Shown one piece after another: positions 1-8,853 of a stretch of DNA of 8,853 bases (position 1 is its first letter; each line of letters starts with the position of its first letter). The position numbers and the translations under genes were made by a program. This DNA comes from an uncultured Polyangiaceae bacterium. Its GTDB lineage: Bacteria; Myxococcota_A; Polyangia; Polyangiales; Polyangiaceae. The notes beneath the pieces are model-generated. The model had not been told where the DNA came from. It saw only the letters and a list, made by a program, of their open reading frames with translations, and did no database searches. The stretch is from contig CAZSVU010000190.1 in the NCBI GenBank assembly GCA_964610275.1, positions 1-8,853 of the forward strand, in the 5' to 3' direction.

Positions 1-420
1 AGCGATGTCCCTGCGAAAGATGTCGTAGCTGGCAGTGTCGACATCCGCGGCGAATGTCGACAGCGGGTCGAAGGACGTCAGCGTGAACGGGTTGGTGCCC
101 ACCGGAATGTAGGTGTCGCCAGCGCTAGCACCGGCACTACCGGACTCGACGCGGAGCTCCGCCTCTTCCATCCCATCTGCACCGCTGAGGTACGCCGCGG
201 AGGCGCCTCCCGTCCCGGTCGAGTAGTTGCTGGTGGGATCGCCCTCAGGGGGCAGGACCGGGAGCCCACCGTCTGCGCTCACGTACGTGTCCCCGTCGTC
301 GTCGTCGCCCCCCGACGACGACGACGACGGCTCCTCACTCTCCGCATCCAGGCTGCAAGCGGCCGCGAGGGACCCGACAGCAGCGGCGAAAGCAATCAGC
401 AAGAACCGATCGGACGGCAT
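1..420 (-). CDS. Partial CDS (N-terminal 140 codons; continues past the window start): predicted lipoprotein with the YfbK-type N-terminal domain that normally precedes a von Willebrand factor A (vWA) domain
   Basis: It is absent from the ORF track because it runs off the window edge. The reverse complement of 1..420 is open for 140 codons from ATG (420..418): MPSDRFLLIAFAAAVGSLAAACSLDAESEEPSSSSSGGDDDDGDTYVS...GTNPFTLTSFDPLSTFAADVDTASYDIFRRDIA. It has a hydrophobic signal sequence ending in a lipobox-like LAAAC (Cys22). A GGGAGG Shine-Dalgarno sits at 434..429, 8 nt before the ATG. The NPF...PLSTF-x-x-DVDTASY block is the recognisable signature of the vWA N-terminal domain of YfbK-like proteins. 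Third codon positions are G/C-rich. Confidence 0.75.
   Translation of the reverse strand, partial: MPSDRFLLIAFAAAVGSLAAACSLDAESEEPSSSSSGGDDDDGDTYVSADGGLPVLPPEGDPTSNYSTGTGGASAAYLSGADGMEEAELRVESGSAGASAGDTYIPVGTNPFTLTSFDPLSTFAADVDTASYDIFRRDIA
294..326. repeat. Perfect 14-bp inverted repeat, (CGT)n / (ACG)n arms with a CCCCC loop, inside the coding sequence
   Basis: cgtcgtcgtcgtcg (294..307), ccccc, cgacgacgacgacg (313..326). On the coding (minus) strand this encodes SSSSS-GG-DDDD. Confidence 0.9.
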
Positions 421-448
421 GGCAAGAACCTCCCGAACGTGCCCGTGG

Positions 449-464
449 TGCAACCCGCGTGCCG
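449..464 (-). promoter_or_regulatory. Sigma-54 (-24/-12) promoter for the vWA-type lipoprotein gene
   Basis: The minus strand reads CGGCACG-CGGG-TTGCA, against the consensus TGGCACG-N4-TTGCW. It matches 15 of 16 positions with correct GG-N10-GC spacing. The predicted +1 is near 438, giving an 18-nt leader that contains the GGGAGG Shine-Dalgarno (434..429) before the ATG at 420. Confidence 0.6.
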
Positions 465-526
465 GGACCACCGCCGCATGGCATTTCGCTGGGTTGCGGC
501 GCCCGCCTGCGCCAGGGACGCGACGC

Positions 527-545
527 GGCACAGCTCGGCTGTGCC
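527..545. promoter_or_regulatory. Perfect inverted repeat GGCACAG-N5-CTGTGCC, a candidate upstream activator (EBP) site about 90-107 bp upstream of the 449..464 promoter start
   Basis: ggcacag ctcgg ctgtgcc has 7-bp perfect arms. No T-tract follows on either strand, so it is not a canonical intrinsic terminator for the gene ending at 570. Its right half lies within a 12-nt string, TCGGCTGTGCCA (535..546), that recurs at 7716..7727. Confidence 0.3.
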
Positions 546-569
546 AGAGTGAGCCACCGCCTGCCGCGC

Positions 570-1307
570 TCAGTCTGGGCTGTGAACCGTGATGGCACGT
601 CGCTCCGGCGGCGTGCCGATCCAAAGGAACACGATCTCCTCGTCGAAGGCAGCGCCAGCCACGACCTCCACCGTCACGCTCAGACTCTCGCCCGGCAGTA
701 CCGTCGCTGGCCAGGTCGCGCCCGTCCCAACCATGAGTGCGCTCGGCTCGAGGCGGGTGGTGGGCGCCGCAACCACCACGTCGGTAGTGCACGAGTTTCG
801 AATCTCGACGACGTCGGGCTGGGTCCCGAGGATGAGCTCGGCGGGCGGATCGATCTCGACGCATCCATCGGCAAGCGACCCACCCGTCCCCGGCGCTCCA
901 TCGACCCCGCCCACAGGAGGCGCCTCGGCATCTGAGGGCTGCGACCGTGCCCCATCGGCGATCACCTGGATGCGGATCTCGTCTCCTGCAGCACCAGGCA
1001 CGACCAGCTCGAAGCTCCCGTCTTCGGCCACGGTGGTTTCCACGTAGCTGTCCGCCGAGTCCAGGTTGTAGGCGCGCACCGTCGCACCCGGCGGAGACGC
1101 CGCTCCAGGACCTCCGCGCACGACCACGCCGTCCCCTCGCGTGGGGACTGCTTCGGAGTCCGTCACACCGACGTCCACCTGGTTCGGGTCCAGGGTGGCG
1201 TCCGGGGGCTCTGGCTTGGGGCTGATCTCGCAACCCACTGCGCACGCGATCAGTGCTGCCAGGACGTGGCACAGCCACTTCTGATTTCGAACCGCAGGCG
1301 CACTCAT
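570..1307 (-). CDS. Predicted lipoprotein of unknown function with two probable beta-sandwich (Ig-like) regions
   Basis: This is track ORF 570..1382, with the start trimmed to the internal ATG at 1307..1305. That start gives MSAPAVRNQKWLCHVLAALIACAVGC..., a classic n-region, h-region and lipobox LIAC. A GAGGA Shine-Dalgarno lies at 1316..1312. Third codon positions are G/C-rich. The segment VRAYNLDSADSYVETTVAEDGSFELVVPGAAGDEIRIQV resembles carboxypeptidase-regulatory-like folds. The C-terminal half (ELILGTQPDVVEIRNSCTTDVVV...LPGESLSVTVEV) resembles PapD/ASH-like beta-sandwich domains. The fold assignments are pattern recognition only. Confidence 0.75.
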   Translation of the reverse strand: MSAPAVRNQKWLCHVLAALIACAVGCEISPKPEPPDATLDPNQVDVGVTDSEAVPTRGDGVVVRGGPGAASPPGATVRAYNLDSADSYVETTVAEDGSFELVVPGAAGDEIRIQVIADGARSQPSDAEAPPVGGVDGAPGTGGSLADGCVEIDPPAELILGTQPDVVEIRNSCTTDVVVAAPTTRLEPSALMVGTGATWPATVLPGESLSVTVEVVAGAAFDEEIVFLWIGTPPERRAITVHSPD

Positions 1308-1321
1308 CTCGTCCTCAGTTT

Positions 1322-1337
1322 TGCAAATCCAATGCCC
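1322..1337 (-). promoter_or_regulatory. Sigma-54-like -24/-12 element upstream of the 570..1307 lipoprotein gene; positionally awkward
   Basis: The minus strand reads GGGCAT-TGGAT-TTGCA, with GGCA and TTGCA intact and correct spacing. The predicted +1 is near 1311, only about 4 nt before the ATG at 1307. That would exclude the GAGGA Shine-Dalgarno from the transcript, so the mRNA would be nearly leaderless or the match is fortuitous. Confidence 0.3.
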
Positions 1338-1479
1338 GTCTGAACAGGATTGGGTGGGCGACCAGCGCGGAGCGAGATCCACCCGTGAATTCGGCCGCCG
1401 TCGCGGGATCCAGGGATGCGCGCCGGCACTGTCACCGCAACCTGTGCAGCTCGGCTAGCGCAGATCATGTTTCATTCTG

Positions 1480-1485
1480 TATCAT
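1480..1485 (+). promoter_or_regulatory. Possible sigma-70-type -10 hexamer (TATCAT) placed so that transcription would start at or next to the ATG, giving a leaderless mRNA
   Basis: TATCAT lies 6 nt upstream of A1492 inside an unusually AT-rich 31-nt island (1461..1491). No Shine-Dalgarno-like purine run precedes the ATG. No good -35 element is seen. Confidence 0.25.
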
Positions 1486-1491
1486 TTTGGC

Positions 1492-4400
1492 ATGCTTCCC
1501 GACTCGGGGAGACAGTCGAACGGGATCACCGCGGGCTCGATCATCCAGCATCGCTACGAGGTGGTGCGCGCGCTCGGCCACGGGGGTCTGGCCACGACCT
1601 TCCTCGTTCGTGACCTGCTGGTGGGCACGAGCGTGGCCCTGAAGCTCCTCGCAGAATCCGCTCCCGAGGCACTGGAGGCTCTGCGATTCGAGTTTGCCGT
1701 GCTGCGCGAGCTCTACCACCCACACCTGTGCCAGGTGCACGACTTCGCCCTGGTGAGACCACGGGCGGGCGACGAGCGTCAGCTCGCGTTCTACACGGCC
1801 GAGTACGTGCCCGGACAAACCCTCGCAGAGCTGGCGCCAGCAGCAACCTGGCCCGGGCTGCGACAGCCGTTGGTCGACGCTCTGAGCGCGCTTCGGCTCT
1901 TGCACCGAGCCGGTCTTCGACACGGCGACTTCAAACCCGCCAACGTTCTGGTGCGAAGCAACGAACGGGGCGTGCTGATCGATCTCAGCTGTGCCCAGCG
2001 GACGGACGCCGCGCCTTCGGGCAGGGTGAGCGGCACGCCCGACTACCTGGCGCCGGAGCTGCTGAAGGCGGGGTCGGCGGACGCGCGAGCGGATCTGTAC
2101 GCGGTAGGACGGACGCTGCTCGAGCTGTCGGAGTCGGTGAAGCGCGGGCTACCGCCTGCGGTGATGAGTCTCGCACAGCGCTTGCTGCGAGACGACGTGG
2201 AGGCTCGCCCCGCAGACGTGGACGAAGTGCTCGAAGCCCTGGGGATCTCGCCGACCGAGCACGTGGCGGTACCGGTGGGTATCGGGCGTCTGGTGGGTCG
2301 CGACGAACAGCTCCAAACGGCACGCGGTGCCTTGGGCGCGCTCGCGGAAGGTACTGCTGGTCCGCGCTGCCTGTACGTGTGCGGGACAGAAGGCGTGGGG
2401 AAAAGCCGAGTCCTGCGGGAAATCAAGTGGACAGCCCAGCAGCAGTTCCGCGTCGTGGAGGCGAACTCCGCCAACCCCGGCGCCATCGACGCCCTGCTGC
2501 AGCACGCTCTGGGCGACGGGCGGTCGCACGGCTGGGCGGCCGTCGGAGCGCTGCGCCGGGCTCTGGCGGCCTCAACGTGGACATCCTGCGTTCTGTTCAT
2601 CGACGACGTCCACCTGCTCCGCGTTCGCCAGCGTCAGCTGCTCCTGGCAGTGGTGCGGTCCCTGGAGCCCACTGACGCGCTGTTGCTGGTCATCACGGGG
2701 CCCGCAGACCACGATCCGGGCGGGCCTGCCACGTGCCGCCTGGACCTTCGTCCACTGACCCCGGAGCAGATGGACGATTGGCTCGGCTCCACGTTGCCCG
2801 AGTCCGTTCGCACGGCGCTGCGCAAGCACAGTGGTGGGTTTCCCGGTGCCCTGCGCTCGCTGATCACGCAGCTCGCCACCGGCGCGATCTCGGAAGTCGA
2901 CATCAAGCGCGGTCAGCGCGGAATCGCTCTCTCCGGTCACCAGCGCGCCAGGGTGCGGGGACTGGACCCCGAGGCCCAGCGCGCGCTCGGTGCACTGGCA
3001 GTGGTGGGGCGCGCCTCCGGCGCTGCTGCTCTGGCACAACTGGGTGTCGACGAGGCTGCCCTGACCCAGCTGGCGAGCTCGGCCATCGTGGAACAAAACG
3101 AGCGGGGCTTCCGACTCTGGCGATGGGGCGAGAGCGAAGACGTGCTGGCAGCGTTGGATCCGGCGTTGGTGGCTGACCTTCATCGCCGCATGGCCGCGTG
3201 GCTCGCGACTCGGCCGCCCGAAGTCGCGCCGCTCAGCGACTCGGAGCAACTGGCCCGGCGGGTGCTGCACCTCGCTCTGGGCCGGGGTGAACAGGAGGCG
3301 CGGCAGCTACTGCTGGATTCGAACGCGCTTTGGGAGGATGTGCCCGGAGCTTGGGCCGAAGCGGCTCGGGCGGTCAGCTCGGTCAGCGCCGATCTCGAGG
3401 TCGGAATCGCTGCAGCCGCGCTGGAGCGTGAGGCAGGCGGCGCGCGGGCGGCCCGGGACCGACTGGTGGCAACCCAGGGACGCGCCATTCCAATTGCGCT
3501 ACGAGCTGCGTTCCACTTGGAGCTGGGGCTCTGTCACCTCAGGCTCGGCGACGCGAGCGCCGGCGAATCCGAGCTCAGCCGGGCGGCAGACGTCGCGCAG
3601 ACTCCAGAGCTGGCCGCTCGGGCGCAGGCCGCGCTGGCCGGATCGCTCAACAAGCGCGGGCGGTACCGCGAAGCCCTGGAGCTCGTGGACCGGGCGCTGG
3701 CGGCCGAGCTTCCTCCAGTGCTCCGCGCCGCGCTGCAGCAGGCCGGTGCGGTGGCGGACTGCTTCCTGGGCAACCTCGACCTCGCCCTAGGGAGAGTCCA
3801 GGAAGCGGCGCGTCTGCTGGGCTCGGTGACGCACCCACGACGGCTCGTGCGGGCCCTGGGAACACAGGCGCTGGTCGAGCAGCAGATGGGCAACTTGCAG
3901 GCGGCCACCACGCACTACGGCGCGGCTCTCGACCTGGCAGAGCAGCACGGCCTCTCCGACCAGATCGCCACGGCGGCGCTCAACCTGGGGACCGCGTTGC
4001 ACCAACAGGGCGACTGGAGCGAAGCACTCGTCGCCTACGAGCGCGGCTTGCTCACTGCGGCGGCCGTGGGTCAAGCCACTACGGAATCGTTGCTACGGTT
4101 CAACCTCTCGAAGCTGTACGCCGACTTGGGACAATTCGATCGTGCCGAGCTGGCCGCGGATCGCTGCCAAGCGCTGGCGCGACAGGGCGACCTCAACCTG
4201 GTCGCTGCGGAGGCCGAGGCCGTGCGTGGCGAGGTCCAAATGTTGCGCGGAGATCTGCGCGGGGCCCGTCGGTGCTTCGAGCATGCGCTGCTTCAATTCG
4301 ATCAGCACGAGAGTCGGCGGGAGCGCACCGAAGTCGCCCTGCAGCTCAGCGAAGTTCTGCTCGCGTGCCAAGAAGTCGACGCAGCCGAACGGCTGCTGGC

Positions 4401-6351
4401 CGAGGTCGCACCCCAGCTCGGTGACCTGGACGCCGAGGACACGAAGCTCAGGTGGCGGTTGGCCTCGGGTCGACTCGCGCTCGCCCGAGCCGATGCGGGC
4501 GCGGCGGCAGCGGCCGGCGAAGCAGCTTCGCGAGAGGCCAGCCGGCTGTCGTTGCAGGACGTCGAAGGTGATGCCGAGCTATTTCTCTCCGAGGTCTGGC
4601 GCGGCCAAGACTCTCCATCCCTGGCGCAGAAGCACTTGGTCCGTGCCCGGGAGGTCTGGGAACGAGCTGCCGTCACTCTGGAGCCTCAGCTGCGGGATGC
4701 CTTCTGGCGGCACCCACGGCGGCGTGACGCTCGCAGCCCGAGCGCCGAAGCGCGCGAGCCGGCCGGGTCCAACCGTCAGCGCAAGCTCGAGCTGCTGCTG
4801 GACATCAACCAGCGCCTGAACTCCTCACTGCGCACTTCCGAGATCCTGCAGCACACCATGGACGCCGCCATCCAACTCACCGGAGCCGAACGCGGTTTCG
4901 TCCTGCTACTGGAGTCGGCGGCATCGCCCCGAACGTTCCGGGTGGCAGTAGCTCGGAATCTCGACTGTGAGCAGTTGGAGCGCTCGCACTTGAAGTTCAG
5001 TCGCGCCATCGCCGAGCAGGTGGTGCAGTCGGCCACGCCCGTGGTGACGGCGAACGCTCAGACGGACGCTCGCTTCAGTCAGCACGACTCGGTGCATGCC
5101 ATGCACCTGCAGTCCGTCGTCTGCGTGCCGGTGGTTTCGCCAGCGGGCACACTCGGGGCCCTCTATCTCGACAATCGGTTTCAGGCGAATCGCTTCCGGC
5201 AGGCGGACGTCGAGATCTTGCTGGCGTTCTCGACTCAGGTCGCCATCGCGCTCAACAATGCGCGCCTGCACGACGAGCTCAAGAAGCGAAACCGGCAGCT
5301 GTCGCGCGAGCGTCAGCGAGTCGAAGAGTTGCTGCAGGGCCAGGCGGCGGAAATCGAGCGTTTGAGCGACGAGGTGCGCCGTGCCCGGACCACGCCCGAG
5401 CAACGCTACGACTACCAGGGCATCGTCGGAGCGAGCGACTCGATACGGCAGGTCTTCTCGCTACTGGACCGCGTCATCGAGACCGACCTGTCCATCCTCA
5501 TTCAGGGCGAGAGCGGTACCGGGAAGGAGTTGTTCGCGCGGGCCATCCACCTGAACAACTCCCAGCGGAAAGGCCCCCTGGTTTCGGTCAACTGCGCGGC
5601 GTTGCCACAGACCCTGCTCGAGAGCGAGCTGTTCGGATACGAGCGCGGTGCGTTCACCGGGGCGGACCGAAGCCGGGAGGGTCTATTGGTCAAGGCGCGC
5701 GGCGGAACGCTCTTCTTGGACGAGGTGGCCGATATGCCTCTACCCATGCAGGTGAAGCTCTTGCGCGCCCTGCAGGAGCGCGAGGTCCGTCCGCTCGGCT
5801 CCAGCCGAGTGGTGCCCATCGACATTCGTCTGGTGTGCGCCACCAACCGGCATCTCCAGAGTGAGGTCAAGCTTGGGGCCTTCCGCGCAGACCTGTACTA
5901 CCGAATCGCCGGTGTGGAGGCGACCCTGCCTCCGCTGCGTGACCGCCCGGAAGACATCCCGCTGCTGGTGCACCACCTGCTCGCTGCTGCCGCGCGACGC
6001 ATGGAGCGTCCCGTGCCTGAGCTCAGCCCACCGGCGTTGCGCAAGCTCACCGGGTTCGAGTGGCCGGGCAACGTCCGGCAGCTGGAGAACGTGGTGACCA
6101 AGGCGCTCGTCATGGCCGAGGGCAACCGCATCGCCGCGCGCGACATCGAGCTCCCCGGCGACGACGCCAGCGTGGCATCTGGCGCGAACCGAGACGCCTT
6201 CCTCCAGCACGAAGCCGAACGGATCGCCGCCGCTCTCGCCGAGAACCGGTGGAACGTGTCCAGGGTCGGCAGACTACTCGGGATCCCTCGGCCCACGCTC
6301 TATCGAAAGCTCAAGCGCTACGGGCTGATGCGCGCCAAGAGCAATCGCTGA
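1492..6351 (+). CDS. 1619-aa multidomain regulator: Ser/Thr protein kinase, STAND-type P-loop NTPase, TPR-like repeats, GAF, sigma-54 interaction AAA+ domain and Fis-type HTH (a sigma-54-dependent enhancer-binding protein fused to a kinase/STAND sensor)
   Basis: It is a single uninterrupted ORF with strong G/C bias at third codon positions. ATG 1492 is the first start after the in-frame stop at 1456..1458. The diagnostic motifs are listed in the domain sub-features below. Confidence 0.95.
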   Translation: MLPDSGRQSNGITAGSIIQHRYEVVRALGHGGLATTFLVRDLLVGTSVALKLLAESAPEALEALRFEFAVLRELYHPHLCQVHDFALVRPRAGDERQLAFYTAEYVPGQTLAELAPAATWPGLRQPLVDALSALRLLHRAGLRHGDFKPANVLVRSNERGVLIDLSCAQRTDAAPSGRVSGTPDYLAPELLKAGSADARADLYAVGRTLLELSESVKRGLPPAVMSLAQRLLRDDVEARPADVDEVLEALGISPTEHVAVPVGIGRLVGRDEQLQTARGALGALAEGTAGPRCLYVCGTEGVGKSRVLREIKWTAQQQFRVVEANSANPGAIDALLQHALGDGRSHGWAAVGALRRALAASTWTSCVLFIDDVHLLRVRQRQLLLAVVRSLEPTDALLLVITGPADHDPGGPATCRLDLRPLTPEQMDDWLGSTLPESVRTALRKHSGGFPGALRSLITQLATGAISEVDIKRGQRGIALSGHQRARVRGLDPEAQRALGALAVVGRASGAAALAQLGVDEAALTQLASSAIVEQNERGFRLWRWGESEDVLAALDPALVADLHRRMAAWLATRPPEVAPLSDSEQLARRVLHLALGRGEQEARQLLLDSNALWEDVPGAWAEAARAVSSVSADLEVGIAAAALEREAGGARAARDRLVATQGRAIPIALRAAFHLELGLCHLRLGDASAGESELSRAADVAQTPELAARAQAALAGSLNKRGRYREALELVDRALAAELPPVLRAALQQAGAVADCFLGNLDLALGRVQEAARLLGSVTHPRRLVRALGTQALVEQQMGNLQAATTHYGAALDLAEQHGLSDQIATAALNLGTALHQQGDWSEALVAYERGLLTAAAVGQATTESLLRFNLSKLYADLGQFDRAELAADRCQALARQGDLNLVAAEAEAVRGEVQMLRGDLRGARRCFEHALLQFDQHESRRERTEVALQLSEVLLACQEVDAAERLLAEVAPQLGDLDAEDTKLRWRLASGRLALARADAGAAAAAGEAASREASRLSLQDVEGDAELFLSEVWRGQDSPSLAQKHLVRAREVWERAAVTLEPQLRDAFWRHPRRRDARSPSAEAREPAGSNRQRKLELLLDINQRLNSSLRTSEILQHTMDAAIQLTGAERGFVLLLESAASPRTFRVAVARNLDCEQLERSHLKFSRAIAEQVVQSATPVVTANAQTDARFSQHDSVHAMHLQSVVCVPVVSPAGTLGALYLDNRFQANRFRQADVEILLAFSTQVAIALNNARLHDELKKRNRQLSRERQRVEELLQGQAAEIERLSDEVRRARTTPEQRYDYQGIVGASDSIRQVFSLLDRVIETDLSILIQGESGTGKELFARAIHLNNSQRKGPLVSVNCAALPQTLLESELFGYERGAFTGADRSREGLLVKARGGTLFLDEVADMPLPMQVKLLRALQEREVRPLGSSRVVPIDIRLVCATNRHLQSEVKLGAFRADLYYRIAGVEATLPPLRDRPEDIPLLVHHLLAAAARRMERPVPELSPPALRKLTGFEWPGNVRQLENVVTKALVMAEGNRIAARDIELPGDDASVASGANRDAFLQHEAERIAAALAENRWNVSRVGRLLGIPRPTLYRKLKRYGLMRAKSNR
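1555..2241 (+). other. Domain: Hanks-type Ser/Thr protein kinase catalytic domain (aa ~22-250)
   Basis: Motifs present: Gly-loop LGHGGLATTF; VALK (Lys51); alphaC Glu in RFEFAVLRELYHPHL; catalytic loop RHGDFKPANVL (Asp146, Asn151); DLS in place of DFG (Asp164); GTPDYLAPE. Confidence 0.9.
2287..2871 (+). other. Domain: STAND/AAA_16-like P-loop NTPase (aa ~266-460)
   Basis: The preamble LVGRDEQL is followed by Walker A GTEGVGKS (aa 298-305, nt 2383..2406) and Walker B VLFIDDVH (aa 367-374, nt 2590..2613). This layout is typical of PknK/MalT/AfsR-type signalling NTPases that follow a kinase domain. Confidence 0.75.
3508..4690 (+). other. Region: TPR-like / alpha-helical repeat scaffold
   Basis: Recurrent ~34-40 aa Leu/Ala-rich helical units are present. 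Examples: LGLCHLRLGDASAGESELSRAADVA, LAGSLNKRGRYREALELVDRALA, LNLGTALHQQGDWSEALVAYERGL, LSKLYADLGQFDRAELAADRCQALA and VRGEVQMLRGDLRGARRCFEHAL. The boundaries are approximate. Confidence 0.65.
4786..5280 (+). other. Domain: GAF (aa ~1099-1263)
   Basis: LELLLDINQRLNSSLRTSEILQHTMDAAIQLTGAERGFVLLLE...SVVCVPVVSPAGTLGALYLDN...ILLAFSTQVAIALNNARLHDEL. This is a typical GAF pattern as found N-terminal to NifA/FhlA-type activators. A short coiled-coil linker follows (KKRNRQLSRERQRVEELLQGQAAEIERLSDEV). Confidence 0.85.
5407..6100 (+). other. Domain: sigma-54 interaction AAA+ ATPase core
   Basis: Motifs present: Walker A GESGTGKE (5506..5529); ESELFGYERGAFTGA with an intact GAFTGA loop (5647..5664); Walker B GGTLFLDEV; sensor I LVCATN; FRADLYYRI; WPGNVRQLENV. 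Confidence 0.95.
6244..6330 (+). other. Domain: Fis-type helix-turn-helix DNA-binding domain
   Basis: NRWNVSRVGRLLGIPRPTLYRKLKRYGL is the canonical C-terminal HTH_8 of NtrC-family activators. Confidence 0.9.
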
Positions 6352-6402
6352 TCTGCCACCTACCGCCCGTGGGACGCCCGGCGATGCGCCGCCGCGCGGA
6401 GT

Positions 6403-7314
6403 TCAGTACGGAATGGCGTATCGGGCCACGTTGCAGTTGAGATCGAGCAGACAGTCAGCGTCCTCACAATCGACAGTCCCGTCGAAGTCGTTGTCGACGC
6501 CGTCCGTGCAGTTCTCCATGGGAACGGCGTAGTCGGCTTGCCCCACGCAGAGTATGTCCGCACTGCAGTCGGTGTCGTCGCAGTCGATGGCGTTGTCGCC
6601 GTCGTCGTCGATCCCGTTGCCGCAGTTGGTCTCGATGGGGATCCCATACCGCTCACCCGCGCAGGCTGCGGCTGACGTGCAATCCGCATCGGCGCAGTCA
6701 ACCGCGCCGTCGAAGTCGTCGTCGACGCCGTTGGTGCAGTCCTCCAGCGGAACGCCATATTCCGGCTGCCCCACGCACACTGGATCCGACGCGCAGTCGG
6801 TGTCGTCGCAGTCGACGGCATTGTCGCCGTCGTCGTCCGTGCCGTTGCTGCAGTCGGTCTCCATGGGCACGCCGTAGACAGGCTGCCCGACGCAGACGGG
6901 ATCCTGGGCACAGTCTTGGTCGCTGCAGTCGATGGCGTCGTCGCCGTCGTCGTCGATGCCGTTGCTGCAGTCACTCTCCAGCGGAATGGCGTAGCGTTCG
7001 CCGGCGGAACATGCAGGCGTACCCGCGCAAGTGTCGTCGGCGCAATCGACCGCTCCGTCCTGATCGTTGTCCACCTGGTCGCTGCACTGCTCGGCGCAGT
7101 CTGGCCCGCTGCAGGTCCCCTCACCGACCGAGTCGGTACCTCCACTGCTCTCTCCGCCGCAGGCCGCGAGCACCAGCGTGGTGCCCAGCGCTGCCGGCGC
7201 AGCCAGGCGCCGGCGCAGCCACCGCCGCCAGGGCAGCGGCGCAGTGCCGGTCGGCGTGCTGCACACGAGCTCGAGAAAAGCTTGAAGATCCCTAGCGTGC
7301 TGGTGGGTGGACAT
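6403..7314 (-). CDS. Secreted lipoprotein with six tandem ~38-aa Cys/Asp-rich repeats carrying DxDxDG-type (thrombospondin type-3 / EF-hand-like) putative Ca2+-binding loops
   Basis: This is track ORF 6403..7314 (303 aa). A strong AGGAGG Shine-Dalgarno lies at 7326..7321, 6 nt before the ATG at 7314. The signal region is ...RRWLRRRLAAPAALGTTLVLAACGG, with lipobox LAAC (Cys52). The repeat unit is C-x-[ND]-G-x-D-[DN]-D-x-D-[GDN]-A-[VI]-D-C-x-D-x-D-C-x(5,6)-C-...-Y-[AG]-[VI]-P. Third codon positions are G/C-rich. Confidence 0.9.
   Translation of the reverse strand: MSTHQHARDLQAFLELVCSTPTGTAPLPWRRWLRRRLAAPAALGTTLVLAACGGESSGGTDSVGEGTCSGPDCAEQCSDQVDNDQDGAVDCADDTCAGTPACSAGERYAIPLESDCSNGIDDDGDDAIDCSDQDCAQDPVCVGQPVYGVPMETDCSNGTDDDGDNAVDCDDTDCASDPVCVGQPEYGVPLEDCTNGVDDDFDGAVDCADADCTSAAACAGERYGIPIETNCGNGIDDDGDNAIDCDDTDCSADILCVGQADYAVPMENCTDGVDNDFDGTVDCEDADCLLDLNCNVARYAIPY
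6406..7086 (-). repeat. Six in-frame coding repeats (~114-117 bp each), alternating between two subtypes
   Basis: The repeats start at Cys77, 116, 155, 193, 231 and 269. The subtype DDDGD[DN]A[IV]DC[SD]D[QT]DC...CVGQ alternates with the subtype D[DN]D[FQ]DG[AT]VDC[AE]D[AD][DT]C. At DNA level, ~230-bp double units (for example 6563..6650 against 6793..6880) are clearly similar. Confidence 0.85.
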
Positions 7315-7372
7315 TTCGAGCCTCCTGCGATTCCGCTCTCACGGTGCGGACCGCATTACGGAGAGGGTAGAA

Positions 7373-7388
7373 TGCAATCTGCATGCCA
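7373..7388 (-). promoter_or_regulatory. Sigma-54 (-24/-12) promoter P1, proximal, for the Cys/Asp-repeat lipoprotein gene
   Basis: The minus strand reads TGGCATG-CAGA-TTGCA. It matches the consensus TGGCACG-N4-TTGCW at every specified position except C to T at position 6, and it fits TGGCAY-N5-TTGCW perfectly. The predicted +1 is near 7362, giving a 48-nt leader containing AGGAGG before the ATG at 7314. Confidence 0.75.
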
Positions 7389-7502
7389 GGTAGCGTGCCG
7401 GCGAGCACACCTGCCACCCTGTCGGGCACTTGGAAAGCCAAGCTAAGCGCTTGACGGCCTCTTCTCGACAGATGCACCCGCCGGCATTTCGGGAGGTTCT
7501 GT

Positions 7503-7523
7503 CGGTGAGCGAGAAGCTCACCG
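7503..7523. promoter_or_regulatory. Perfect 8-bp inverted repeat CGGTGAGC-GAGAA-GCTCACCG, a candidate activator-binding site for P1 or a leader hairpin of the P2 transcript
   Basis: The repeat was read directly from the sequence. It is centred about 150 bp upstream of the predicted P1 start, which is the typical distance for enhancer-binding protein sites. Confidence 0.3.
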
Positions 7524-7559
7524 GCTGGGGATGTGTGTGAAGAAGCCTGGAAACGAGAC

Positions 7560-7575
7560 AGCAAGTACGGTGCCA
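7560..7575 (-). promoter_or_regulatory. Sigma-54 (-24/-12) promoter P2, distal, same orientation as P1
   Basis: The minus strand reads TGGCAC-CGTAC-TTGCT, a perfect match to the TGGCAC-N5-TTGCW core. The predicted +1 is near 7549, about 235 nt upstream of the ATG at 7314. Confidence 0.6.
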
Positions 7576-7576
7576 G

Positions 7577-7649
7577 CGGGGTCGCACTGGGCCGGGCTCG
7601 ATTCAAAGCCCGCAACTCCCCGCGCAAGCGCGGATTTGTTGCGACCCTG
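7577..7649. other. ~73-nt nested inverted-repeat element (three-way junction if transcribed) abutting the -24 box of P2
   Basis: The outer stem pairs 7577..7586 with 7640..7649 (core GGGTCGCA/TGCGACCC). Inner hairpin A is CGGGCT-cgattcaa-AGCCCG (7593..7612). Inner hairpin B is CCGCG-caag-CGCGG (7620..7633), followed on the plus strand by ATTTGTT. Confidence 0.3.
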
Positions 7650-7904
7650 AACAGAGGAGCACCACCTGCCGGCGCAGCAAACAGCTCGAATCTAGTTGAT
7701 ACGATTTGAGACAGGTCGGCTGTGCCAAATGAGCGGTGGATTTGCTCCTTGGGCTGGCCGACGCCGTGAATTGCAGTCCTGACGTCTTCCCGCTCAGAAG
7801 ATGCGCAATCGATGCCGAGAACAATCCGCAGCGACTGCCTGCATGCACGGCGCACGGGTGACAGTACCGGGGTAAACGCTCCTCAAGGTGGAGGCACTGG
7901 GACT

Positions 7905-8853
7905 ATGAAAGACTTGATAAAGGCATTGGGCAGCCTCGCGCTTGCAGGCGCGTTGCTGGGAATCGGTTGCGGCGACAGCGGGTCGTCAGGCGATGACGAC
8001 GGCGGCGACGGCGGCGCAACGAGCATGGGCGGGTACGTTGGGTCGCTCGGAGGAGGATCCAGCACTACCGGTGGATCGACCGGCGATGCGGGCTCTGACA
8101 CCGGCTCGGGCGGCTCTGACACCGGCTCGGGTGGCTCTGACACCGGCTCGGGTGGCTCTGACACCGGCTCGGGCGGTGATGACACCGGCTCGGGTGGTGA
8201 TGACACCGGAGCTGGCGGCGCGACCGCGGACGAGTGCCCGGCCACACAGCCCGACGACGGGGACGCTTGCGACGCAATGGCCCTCCTCGGAACGACCTGC
8301 GACTACGGGAACACCTCCTGCACCTGTGACTTCGCCATGGGTGGCGGCACCTGGAACTGCGGAGGCGACACGGGAACCGGCGGCGCCGGCGGCGCAGGGG
8401 GCGATGTGTGCCCGGCCAACGAGCCCGACGACGGTGACGCGTGCACCTTCGCCGAGATGGGCACCACCTGCAGCTACGGCAACACGGACTGCACCTGCGA
8501 AAACACCGGCGGCTTCAACCTCGCCTGGAACTGCGGCGGCGCCACCGGAACAGGAGGTTCGGCCGGCGGCGGCAGCACTGACGCGTGCCCGGCCAACGAG
8601 CCCGACGACGGCGACTCCTGCGATATGGCTACGGTCGGTGGAGAGACCTGCACCTACGGTGGCACGACCTGCACCTGCGAATGGCAGGGCGGAGGTACGT
8701 GGAACTGCACCGGCGACACGGGGACTGGCGGCTCGGCGGGTGGCGGTAGCACCGATGCGTGTCCGGCCAACGAACCCACCGACGGCGGCTCGTGCGACAT
8801 GGCTACGGTCGGTGGAGAGACCTGCACCTACGGTGGCACGACCTGCACCTGCG
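7905..8853 (+). CDS. Partial CDS (316 codons; continues past the window end): lipoprotein with an acidic Gly/Ser/Asp linker and at least four tandem ~58-aa six-cysteine modules
   Basis: It is absent from the ORF track because there is no stop within the window. The frame is open from ATG 7905 to the window end: MKDLIKALGSLALAGALLGIGCGDSGSSGDDDGGDGG... The lipobox-like motif is LGIGC (Cys22). GGTGGAGG lies at 7887..7894, 10 nt upstream of the ATG. The module is CP-A-x-x-P-x-DG-x-x-C-x(5,6)-G-x-TC-x-YG-x-T-x-CTC-x(5,9)-WNC, joined by Gly-rich linkers. Third codon positions are G/C-rich. Confidence 0.85.
   Translation, partial: MKDLIKALGSLALAGALLGIGCGDSGSSGDDDGGDGGATSMGGYVGSLGGGSSTTGGSTGDAGSDTGSGGSDTGSGGSDTGSGGSDTGSGGDDTGSGGDDTGAGGATADECPATQPDDGDACDAMALLGTTCDYGNTSCTCDFAMGGGTWNCGGDTGTGGAGGAGGDVCPANEPDDGDACTFAEMGTTCSYGNTDCTCENTGGFNLAWNCGGATGTGGSAGGGSTDACPANEPDDGDSCDMATVGGETCTYGGTTCTCEWQGGGTWNCTGDTGTGGSAGGGSTDACPANEPTDGGSCDMATVGGETCTYGGTTCTC
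8091..8216 (+). repeat. Six tandem copies of a 21-bp unit (ggctctgacaccggctcgggY), in frame, encoding the heptad GSDTGSG x4 followed by two GD-variant heptads (GDDTGSG, GDDTGAG)
   Basis: The units lie at 8091-8111, 8112-8132, 8133-8153, 8154-8174, 8175-8195 and 8196-8216. The first four are nearly identical and the last two are diverged (ggtgat...). Confidence 0.95.
8235..8853 (+). repeat. At least four tandem coding repeats with a 174-177 bp period (the six-Cys module)
   Basis: The module first-Cys codons are at 8235, 8409, 8586 and 8760. Modules 3 and 4 are nearly identical over ...atggctacggtcggtggagagacctgcacctacggtggcacgacctgcacctgcg, which points to recent duplication or gene conversion. 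Confidence 0.85.

Follow-up and report, generated by a model that had tools for sequence, protein, structure and literature searches.

A divergent kinase-STAND-GAF sigma-54 activator and lipoprotein gene pair as a candidate local control module of an uncultured Polyangia-type myxobacterium

Introduction

The control of a sigma-54 promoter by an enhancer-binding protein (EBP) encoded next to it is an established arrangement in bacteria. In Escherichia coli, PspF-pspA and NorR-norVW are divergent pairs of activator and target with the sigma-54 promoter on the target and enhancer sites that overlap the promoter of the EBP gene, and PrpR-prpBCDE is a further classic module of an EBP with its adjacent target. 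This article addresses a locus with the same layout, an 8853-bp stretch of DNA from an uncultured Polyangiaceae bacterium (GenBank assembly GCA_964610275.1, contig CAZSVU010000190.1, positions 1 to 8853), hereafter the window. The window has a G+C content of 60-73% and holds five genes, A to E, of which gene C encodes a sigma-54 activator with a kinase-STAND-GAF architecture and gene B, divergent from it, a small lipoprotein. We read the window as a local sigma-54 control module of a Polyangia-type myxobacterium, in which B would be the conserved direct target of C and gene D a target recruited in the window's lineage, and we give this reading a probability of about 0.6.

Like PspF and NorR, C has a candidate enhancer at its own start, which suggests autoregulation, and its AAA+ domain aligns with that of PspF at E ~1e-55. 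It differs from both in its input, a 1300-aa kinase-STAND-TPR-GAF array instead of a trans-acting PspA or a GAF domain sensing nitric oxide, and in its target, a secreted lipoprotein with an mRNA predicted to be leaderless. The NifA-type EBPs share with C the order of GAF, AAA+ and helix-turn-helix (HTH) domains (E=1.6e-72 against the NifA structure 9qq6), whereas C is without nif context, carries a large extra N-terminal module and falls under the equivalog cut-off for NifA. The N-terminal half of C recalls instead PknK of Mycobacterium tuberculosis and the MalT/LAL regulators, with an N-terminal Hanks kinase, AAA_16 and, putatively, a MalT-like TPR sensor. The likeness to PknK is taken from JGI annotations, in which several homologues are named 'PknK'. 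The output of C sets it apart from this group, being a sigma-54 AAA+/HTH in cis and not a LuxR HTH or a second regulator that is phosphorylated.

To our knowledge, every characterised sigma-54 activator has a receiver, GAF, PAS, V4R or partner-protein input as its control, and a sigma-54 activator under a fused Hanks kinase and STAND NTPase was not found in the searchable literature. For the DNA sites, the closest described case is Nla28 of Myxococcus xanthus, whose imperfect 8-bp repeats stand in tandem upstream of sigma-54 promoters (PMC9765219). The Nla28 repeat is the GC-rich CT(C/G)CG(C/G)AG and Nla28 is an EBP of the response-regulator type, whereas the repeat in the window is the AT-rich TGTnTCAw and a candidate site.

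Loci compared

Related neighbourhoods were reached by three routes, through homologues of the activator, through a metagenome scan with an alignment of B, and through homologues of B. The labels L001-L004, L007, L084-L087 and L089-L093 refer to the DNA of relatives, and P0003 to a contig for which gene calls only were used. A search of genome contigs with the activator as query returned mostly unrelated EBPs, with the generic FLDEVADM pattern of the AAA+ domain dominant.

The conserved partner of the activator

The features on which the argument rests are the following.

1492-6351, plus strand: gene C, a 1619-aa protein with Hanks-type kinase, AAA_16 STAND NTPase, TPR, GAF, sigma-54 AAA+ and HTH_8
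570-1307, minus strand: gene B, a 245-aa lipoprotein with two immunoglobulin-like (Ig-like) beta-sandwiches
1322-1337, minus strand: PB, sigma-54 element GGGCATTGGATTTGCA, 2 mismatches, the -12 ending 14 nt before the ATG of B
1468-1485, plus strand: tandem 8-bp direct repeat, TGTTTCAT-TC-TGTATCAT, candidate enhancer (upstream activating sequence) and auto-operator

In every one of the 14 loci that have both a B homologue and readable DNA, this homologue adjoins the activator and is divergent from it. In the close loci (the window, L001-L003, L084-L087 and L089-L092) a B orthologue of 234-267 aa is placed directly upstream, and the gene calls of the P0003 contig give the same arrangement. A hidden Markov model of the B family found remote B genes in the same position in L004 and L007, where the activators are only 32-35% identical, and the other paralogous kinase-EBPs in the genome scan are without B. 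The original prediction had proposed conservation of the gene neighbourhood as a check, and the outcome is divided: B passes it, whereas D recurs at two other loci, A in close relatives only and E nowhere. B is the firmest part of the module, the conserved partner of the activator.

The promoter element of B is conserved together with the gene. The gap from the -12 element of PB to the ATG of B measures 12-14 nt in 12 of 12 close loci, a count that holds after the start codons of L084 and L089 were re-read; TGGCACTAAGCTTGCA, TGGCACCCGCCTTGCT, TGGCACGACGGTTGCT and TGGCACCGAGCTTGCT are examples. Since sites as good as PB arise at a background of only 9.5e-4 per position, this recurrence at a fixed position is far beyond chance. 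By consensus PB is the weakest of the sigma-54 elements of the window, yet it is by far the best conserved of them.

A sigma-54 transcript usually starts about 12 nt beyond the GC of the -12 element. With a gap of 12-14 nt to the ATG, the predicted leader of the B mRNA is therefore 0-4 nt long, and no Shine-Dalgarno sequence is conserved upstream of B in the close loci. Little or no leader is thus predicted for the B mRNA; if true, this would be a rare case of a sigma-54 promoter yielding a leaderless mRNA. A separate observation was made in L003, where a perfect-class sigma-54 element, TGGCACGTTGATTGCT (39-54, plus strand), ends 13 nt short of the ATG in an SBBP-repeat gene, a hint that the lineage in general, and not B in particular, may be given to leaderless sigma-54 transcripts.

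At the protein level, B has an invariant lipid-Cys followed by ISPKPEPP, the lipobox being read from a pattern match at Cys22 and a family-invariant Cys26. A signal peptide with a lipobox of the PROSITE type was matched in all four flanking genes (A, B, D and E), so that the lipidation of every flanking product, which the original prediction had called, is likewise predicted here. The AlphaFold model of B (pLDDT 87.1) shows two Ig-like beta-sandwich domains, for which Foldseek returned only generic ASH, PapD, FN3, RbmA and MG-domain matches, and Pfam and NCBIfam hold no family for B. On its model, B is a generic tandem Ig-like lipoprotein without assignable function. RbmA of Vibrio cholerae and other matrix proteins with tandem Ig/FN3 domains have two consecutive Ig-like beta-sandwiches as well; the TM-scores are about 0.3, a resemblance at the level of the fold only, with no sequence family link to B. 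The family comprises 1049 representatives at E<=1e-3 and 237 at E<=1e-30 in an exhaustive profile search, which corrected an earlier word-indexed search that had made it a tiny family of 27 clusters.

Architecture of the activator

The original prediction of a kinase-STAND-GAF sigma-54 activator in the window agrees with both the Pfam domains and the motifs of C. From the N-terminus the domains are Pkinase (22-213), AAA_16 (266-400), TPR_12/TPR_MalT (720-1001), GAF (1116-1254), Sigma54_activat (1311-1475), AAA_lid_14 and HTH_8 (1574-1610). In the C-terminal part, the 232.6 bits of Sigma54_activat (PF00158) compare with a cut-off of 20.2 and the 52 bits of the Fis-type HTH_8 (PF02954) with one of 22, and the EBP motifs are present, with GAFTGA at 1386, the Walker A GESGTGKE at 1339 and the Walker B LFLDEV at 1407. 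By every sequence-level criterion C is a bona fide member of the bacterial EBP superfamily.

In the N-terminal half, the kinase domain (PF00069) is above its cut-off of 31.7 with 77.6 bits and has the motifs VALK with Lys51, HGDFKPAN at 144-151 (a non-RD kinase), DLS at 164 instead of DFG, where the family has DLG, and APE at 187. AAA_16 reaches 45 bits against 32.6, with a Walker A GTEGVGKS at 298 and VLFIDD at ~367. Among the TPR models TPR_12 is above its threshold, and TPR_MalT, at 38.3, is under its cut-off of 45. The EBP, kinase and STAND motifs are kept in 36 full-length homologues, with a nearly invariant HTH.

Among solved structures, the C-terminal third is nearest to ZraR, NifA, FleQ, NtrC and PspF, and the kinase to PknG/PknB. 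Over GAF, AAA+ and lid, the last 520 aa align with the NifA model TIGR01817 at 357.8 bits, and do not reach the equivalog cut-off of 528.85. As judged from these matches, C has a NifA-like C-terminal architecture, yet is not NifA. Its N-terminal half appears to be PknK/MalT-like.

More than 100 full-length homologues of C were found in Sorangium, Polyangium, Minicystis, Sandaracinaceae and metagenome-assembled genomes, under no other database names than 'sigma 54-interacting transcriptional regulator', 'protein kinase' and 'PknK'. The searchable literature yielded no functional description of a kinase-EBP fusion. The architecture of C is common in Polyangia and functionally uncharacterised. 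In one relative, L090 (5779-8877, a long-read contig), the gene call for the activator gives 1032 aa of kinase-STAND-TPR and lacks the GAF-EBP half, through either an artefact by frameshift or a natural split of the protein.

The tandem repeat and gene D

The tandem repeat at 1468-1485 ends 6 nt before the ATG of C and lies 130 bp upstream of PB. Its consensus is TGTnTCAw-N2-TGTATCAw, its position 53-152 bp upstream of PB across loci, and it is kept in about 10 of 12 B-C intergenic regions, where it adjoins the activator start. L004 and L007 have degenerate copies. In L003 the two units stand in swapped order, which argues for equivalent half-sites and not for the -35 and -10 boxes of a promoter. 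A position weight matrix built from six instances scores 34.8 bits at 1468-1485 and found no site of at least 18 bits in 418 kb of unrelated high-GC loci. Compared by eye, the consensus sequences of CRP, Fur and IHF did not fit the AT-rich repeat.

The same matrix leads to gene D, on the other side of the activator.

6403-7314, minus strand: gene D, a 303-aa lipoprotein with lipobox Cys52 and six acidic double-disulfide repeats
7373-7388, minus strand: PD1, proximal sigma-54 element TGGCATGCAGATTGCA, 1 mismatch, 58 nt upstream of the ATG of D
7560-7575, minus strand: PD2, distal sigma-54 element TGGCACCGTACTTGCT, 0 mismatches, 245 nt upstream of the ATG of D
7696-7713, minus strand: second repeat copy, TGTCTCAA-AT-CGTATCAA, 22.4 bits
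7420-7550, minus strand: predicted structured RNA downstream of PD2, core 7432-7505

The second copy is the sole other site of at least 12 bits in the window and stands upstream of PD2, 121 bp from its -24. In L003, CGTCTCGG-AG-TGTCTCAC occurs ~120 bp upstream of the distal D promoter of that locus. The shared repeat is the main evidence that B and D may answer to a common regulator. The doubled promoter arrangement is also reproduced in L003, with TGGAACGCGGCTTGCT as the counterpart of PD1, 64 nt upstream of the D start, and TGGCATTGGATTTGCT as that of PD2 at the corresponding distal place. D comes after the activator in L001, in L003 and probably on the P0003 contig, and is likely to be a second, lineage-restricted target.

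Between the two promoters of D, a block of about 75 nt downstream of PD2 is kept in L003 (~15975-16104, minus strand), where the D proteins are only 45% identical. The conserved pieces are CCGACAGAACCTCC, GGCGGGyGCA, GCCGTCA and GCTTGGCTTTCC. The segment 7420-7550 folds with a minimum free energy of -53.4 kcal/mol (z=-4.5), shows four compensatory pairs between its two sequences, those of the window and L003, and ends with a short hairpin and then TTTCC. Rfam has no family for it, and nothing relevant elsewhere in the window. On these two sequences it is a candidate structured leader or small RNA. A 14-codon open reading frame in the PD2 leader was rejected, as it is not conserved in L003.

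The D protein belongs to NCBIfam NF033662 (acid_disulf_rpt), with 156.5 bits against a cut-off of 41 over six repeats. [quoted passage not shown] The teneurin C-rich domain holds three Ca2+ ions, whose coordination is of TSP3-like and LDL-A-like type, sites I and II being TSP3-like (PMC9058538). A Ca2+ module of DxDxDG/TSP3-like type had been proposed for D from the start, and the homology supports this, though Pfam TSP_3 has no match to D at E<=0.01. D has six tandem four-Cys units, whereas the teneurins have one six-Cys unit. From the alignments we judge the bacterial acidic double-disulfide repeat to be homologous to the C-rich domain of animal teneurins, which fits the proposed bacterial ancestry of teneurin ectodomains and links a bacterial repeat family with a Ca2+-binding domain of animals.

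Separately, the D orthologues P0149, P0150, P0153, P0155 and P0156 have an N-terminal motif of ~25 aa, HAxLxxYLEExC, ahead of the signal peptide and lipobox. In D this extension is residues 1-25 (window 7240-7314, minus strand); it is unusual for a lipoprotein and gives a sub-threshold match to the NCBIfam 'lipo-invert tail' (E=0.0047).

The sigma-54 elements and gene A

The window was searched with the pattern TGGCACN5TTGCW, allowing at most 2 mismatches, against 200 shuffles. It has 13 matches where 4.35 are expected, and none of the 200 shuffles reached 13. Four matches are intergenic; each of them has minus-strand orientation and precedes A, B or D. The -24/-12 elements of the window exceed chance and are evolutionarily conserved. 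The original prediction had assigned such elements to the three minus-strand genes, in qualities of strong, strong and doubled, and weak, and PA, PD1 with PD2, and PB were recovered accordingly: by consensus A has a strong element, D two strong ones and B the weakest. A search for sigma-70-like promoters found none in the whole window. One plus-strand site at 1424-1439, weakly sigma-54-like, was rejected, as it is not conserved in L001.

Gene A and its control region comprise the following.

1-420, minus strand: gene A, the N-terminal 140 aa only of a lipoprotein with a vWF_A N-terminal domain (YfbK-like)
449-464, minus strand: PA, sigma-54 element CGGCACGCGGGTTGCA, 1 mismatch, 28 nt upstream of the ATG of A
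527-545, no strand assigned: perfect palindrome, GGCACAGC-nnn-GCTGTGCC, a candidate for a second enhancer or an operator
7711-7727, minus strand: 17-mer TGGCACAGCCGACCTGT, which abuts the D-side repeat copy and matches 530-546 at 16 of 17 positions

The identification of A as a vWA-N/YfbK-like protein is upheld by Pfam PF12450 (33.7 bits against a cut-off of 25) and by the L087 orthologue, 61% identical, which has vWF_A and VWA (PF00092, 54.1 bits); the VWA domain of A itself lies beyond the window edge. The lipobox of A is LAAAC, ending at Cys22. PA is followed by a GGGAGG Shine-Dalgarno sequence and is invariant, except for one spacer base, in the window, L001, L086 and L087, while its flanks vary. 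The centre of the palindrome lies ~72 bp upstream of the -24 of PA; in L001, L086 and L087 its arms are kept and its centre varies.

The 17-mer, TGGCACAGCCGAsCTGT, has 2 matches in the window where 0.15 are expected. It was rejected as a sigma-54 promoter, its GG-to-GC spacing being 9 and not 10, and rejected in general as a terminator hairpin of B, as the copy at 7711-7727 follows no gene and its second arm is degenerate. Non-canonical TGGCAC(AG) boxes of this kind are found at 530-546 and 7711-7727 (minus strand), at 62-79 of L093 and in the B-C regions of L002, L084, L085, L090 and L092. A GC follows with GG-N9-GC spacing in 5 of 7, the boxes adjoin tandem repeats or sit ~70 bp upstream of sigma-54 promoters, and some are full palindromes. 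A second enhancer type, a sigma-54 decoy and the site of another factor are the candidate explanations.

Two further repeats were noted in these regions. The exact 10-mer AGCCGAsCTG occurs three times, at 531-540, 1447-1456 and 7712-7721 (minus strand), upstream of PA, PB and PD2, with ~0.08 exact copies expected by our own base-composition estimate; as neither L001 nor L087 has kept the PB copy, the 10-mer may reflect recent duplication and not function. Within the coding sequence of A, at 293-330, there is an inverted repeat with perfect 15-bp arms and a loop of 8 nt, formed by Ser codons (TCG)5 and Asp codons (GAC)4, which are mutual reverse complements; it would form a strong mRNA hairpin ~90 nt into the open reading frame.

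Proposed mechanism and alternatives

In the mechanism that we propose, C would act as a signalling pathway in a single polypeptide, in which a non-RD Hanks kinase and a MalT/PknK-like STAND/TPR unit are fused to a NifA-like GAF-AAA+-HTH. We infer that C binds in oligomeric form to the tandem TGTnTCAw repeats over the start region of C itself, which would make C autoregulatory in the manner of PspF. A ligand of the GAF domain, the nucleotide state of the STAND domain and phosphorylation would release the AAA+ ring, and the ring would reach the sigma-54 holoenzyme at PB through DNA looping and drive open complex formation, with a leaderless or near-leaderless B mRNA as the outcome. The repeat upstream of PD2 would place D and its leader RNA under the same control, with PD1 as a second promoter downstream of the leader. 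A, directly downstream of B, is possibly co-regulated, either by read-through from PB or by the TGGCACAG palindrome common to the D control region.

Taken to the lineage as a whole, the kinase-STAND-GAF-EBPs of Polyangia may be unstudied one-protein pathways, in which STAND oligomerisation and Ser/Thr phosphorylation gate a sigma-54 ring, and of which the member in the window binds AT-rich direct repeats, fires a leaderless promoter and drives an undescribed sigma-54-dependent RNA upstream of D; this wider picture is tentative, and we hold it to be doubtful as a whole. For opening the class of kinase-STAND-EBPs, the locus would offer an invariant compact target in B, a defined promoter, a candidate 18-bp enhancer and a probable second target with a leader RNA. 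Its unusual features would be the predicted leaderless transcript from a sigma-54 promoter, candidate enhancers made of AT-rich direct repeats and the possible sigma-54-dependent RNA.

The self-contained regulon of the original prediction stands in part: for B it agrees with synteny, PB and the repeat, whereas the four-gene unit is not conserved and A is without the shared cis-motif. That the regulon is self-contained, and that it serves adhesion or envelope remodelling, are points we infer at most. A Ca2+-dependent envelope or surface module is reasonable for A and D, and uninformative for B, the sole universal target.

Several observations speak against the module as we read it. The repeat lies 1-15 nt from the annotated activator start and may be the promoter of C or the operator of another factor, and Fis-type HTH dimers classically bind inverted and not direct repeats. 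A occurs only in loci with a B at least 73% identical (L001, L086 and L087), is absent beyond close relatives, and has no tandem-repeat match of at least 12 bits in its control region. D is absent from L002, L084, L085, L091 and L092, D-like genes are widespread and do not generally adjoin a kinase-EBP activator, and the conservation of the D-side motif and leader rests on two genomes only. Additionally, Polyangia encode ~100 sigma-54 activators (PMC8436480), so that adjacency alone is weak evidence for A and D.

One alternative is that only B belongs to the regulon of C, with A and D as sigma-54 genes of other EBPs (through the TGGCACAG palindrome, for example) that lie near by chance or recent rearrangement. 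Outside close relatives A and D are not kept as neighbours, A is without the tandem repeat, and myxobacteria have many EBPs; in addition, A and D have a different element in common, the 17-mer described above, and a similar palindrome precedes a D-like gene in L093 with no kinase-EBP adjacent. The 22.4-bit repeat upstream of PD2, with an equivalent element at equal distance in L003, argues the other way, as does the position of D after the activator in the window, L001, L003 and probably P0003. We regard a regulon restricted to B as a possible explanation, and the most serious of the alternatives.

The repeat itself could also be misread, and be a sigma-70-type promoter of C or the operator of an unrelated repressor, with the enhancer of PB elsewhere, for example in the adjoining TGGCAC box. 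The repeat contains a -10-like TATCAT close to the annotated ATG of C, TGGCAC flanks the repeats in L002, L084, L085, L090 and L092 (background 7.9e-4 per position), and inverted repeats are the usual sites of EBP HTH dimers. Yet the units are interchangeable, as their swapped order in L003 shows, a copy stands upstream of PD2 with no gene start nearby, and the distance from repeat to ATG is not fixed. Tandem imperfect 8-bp direct repeats are, moreover, what the myxobacterial EBP Nla28 binds (PMC9765219). We consider this alternative unlikely.

It is very improbable that the -24/-12 matches are chance or non-functional and that ordinary promoters serve these genes with no sigma-54 module. A consensus match alone is no proof of function, PB has two mismatches in the window, and GG/GC matches do arise in high-GC genomes, two sites scoring at least 9 falling inside gene C. 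This would leave unexplained the excess over all 200 shuffles, the correct orientation of the four intergenic matches, the fixed position of PB in 12 loci, the invariance of PA across four and the lack of any sigma-70-like promoter in the window. Finally, an anti-phage or conflict sensor with secreted neighbours as effectors is scarcely credible: STAND NTPases and kinases are common in defence systems and PADLOC models match the kinase and EBP domains, but these matches are generic and at domain level (the PD-T4-6 kinase and the RtcR-type AAA+), A, B, D and E match no PADLOC defence model, and the C-terminal module is a complete sigma-54 activator among neighbours with sigma-54 promoters.

Gene E

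The remaining gene of the window is the following.

7905 to beyond 8853, plus strand: gene E, with lipobox Cys22, a (GSDTGSG)n linker and at least 4 six-Cys modules of ~58 aa

No sigma-54 element scoring at least 7 was found upstream of E on the plus strand, no homologue of E in any related locus, and no family for it in Pfam or NCBIfam. The original prediction had likewise seen no -24/-12 element for this gene and had suggested that it may lie outside the regulon, which both the promoter search and the related loci support; E is probably a neighbour and not a member of the module. Over its start codon, at 7905-7921 (minus strand), there are weak half-site matches, TTTATCAA and TCTTTCAT, of 9.6 and 11.3 bits with 9-bp spacing, which may arise by chance from AT-rich Lys codons. 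Within the gene, a 21-bp tandem repeat at 8091-8209, with 5.7 copies at 93% identity, encodes the (GSDTGSG)n linker, and 174-bp repeats at 8526-8853 encode the six-Cys modules (CPANEPDDGDxC...WNC).

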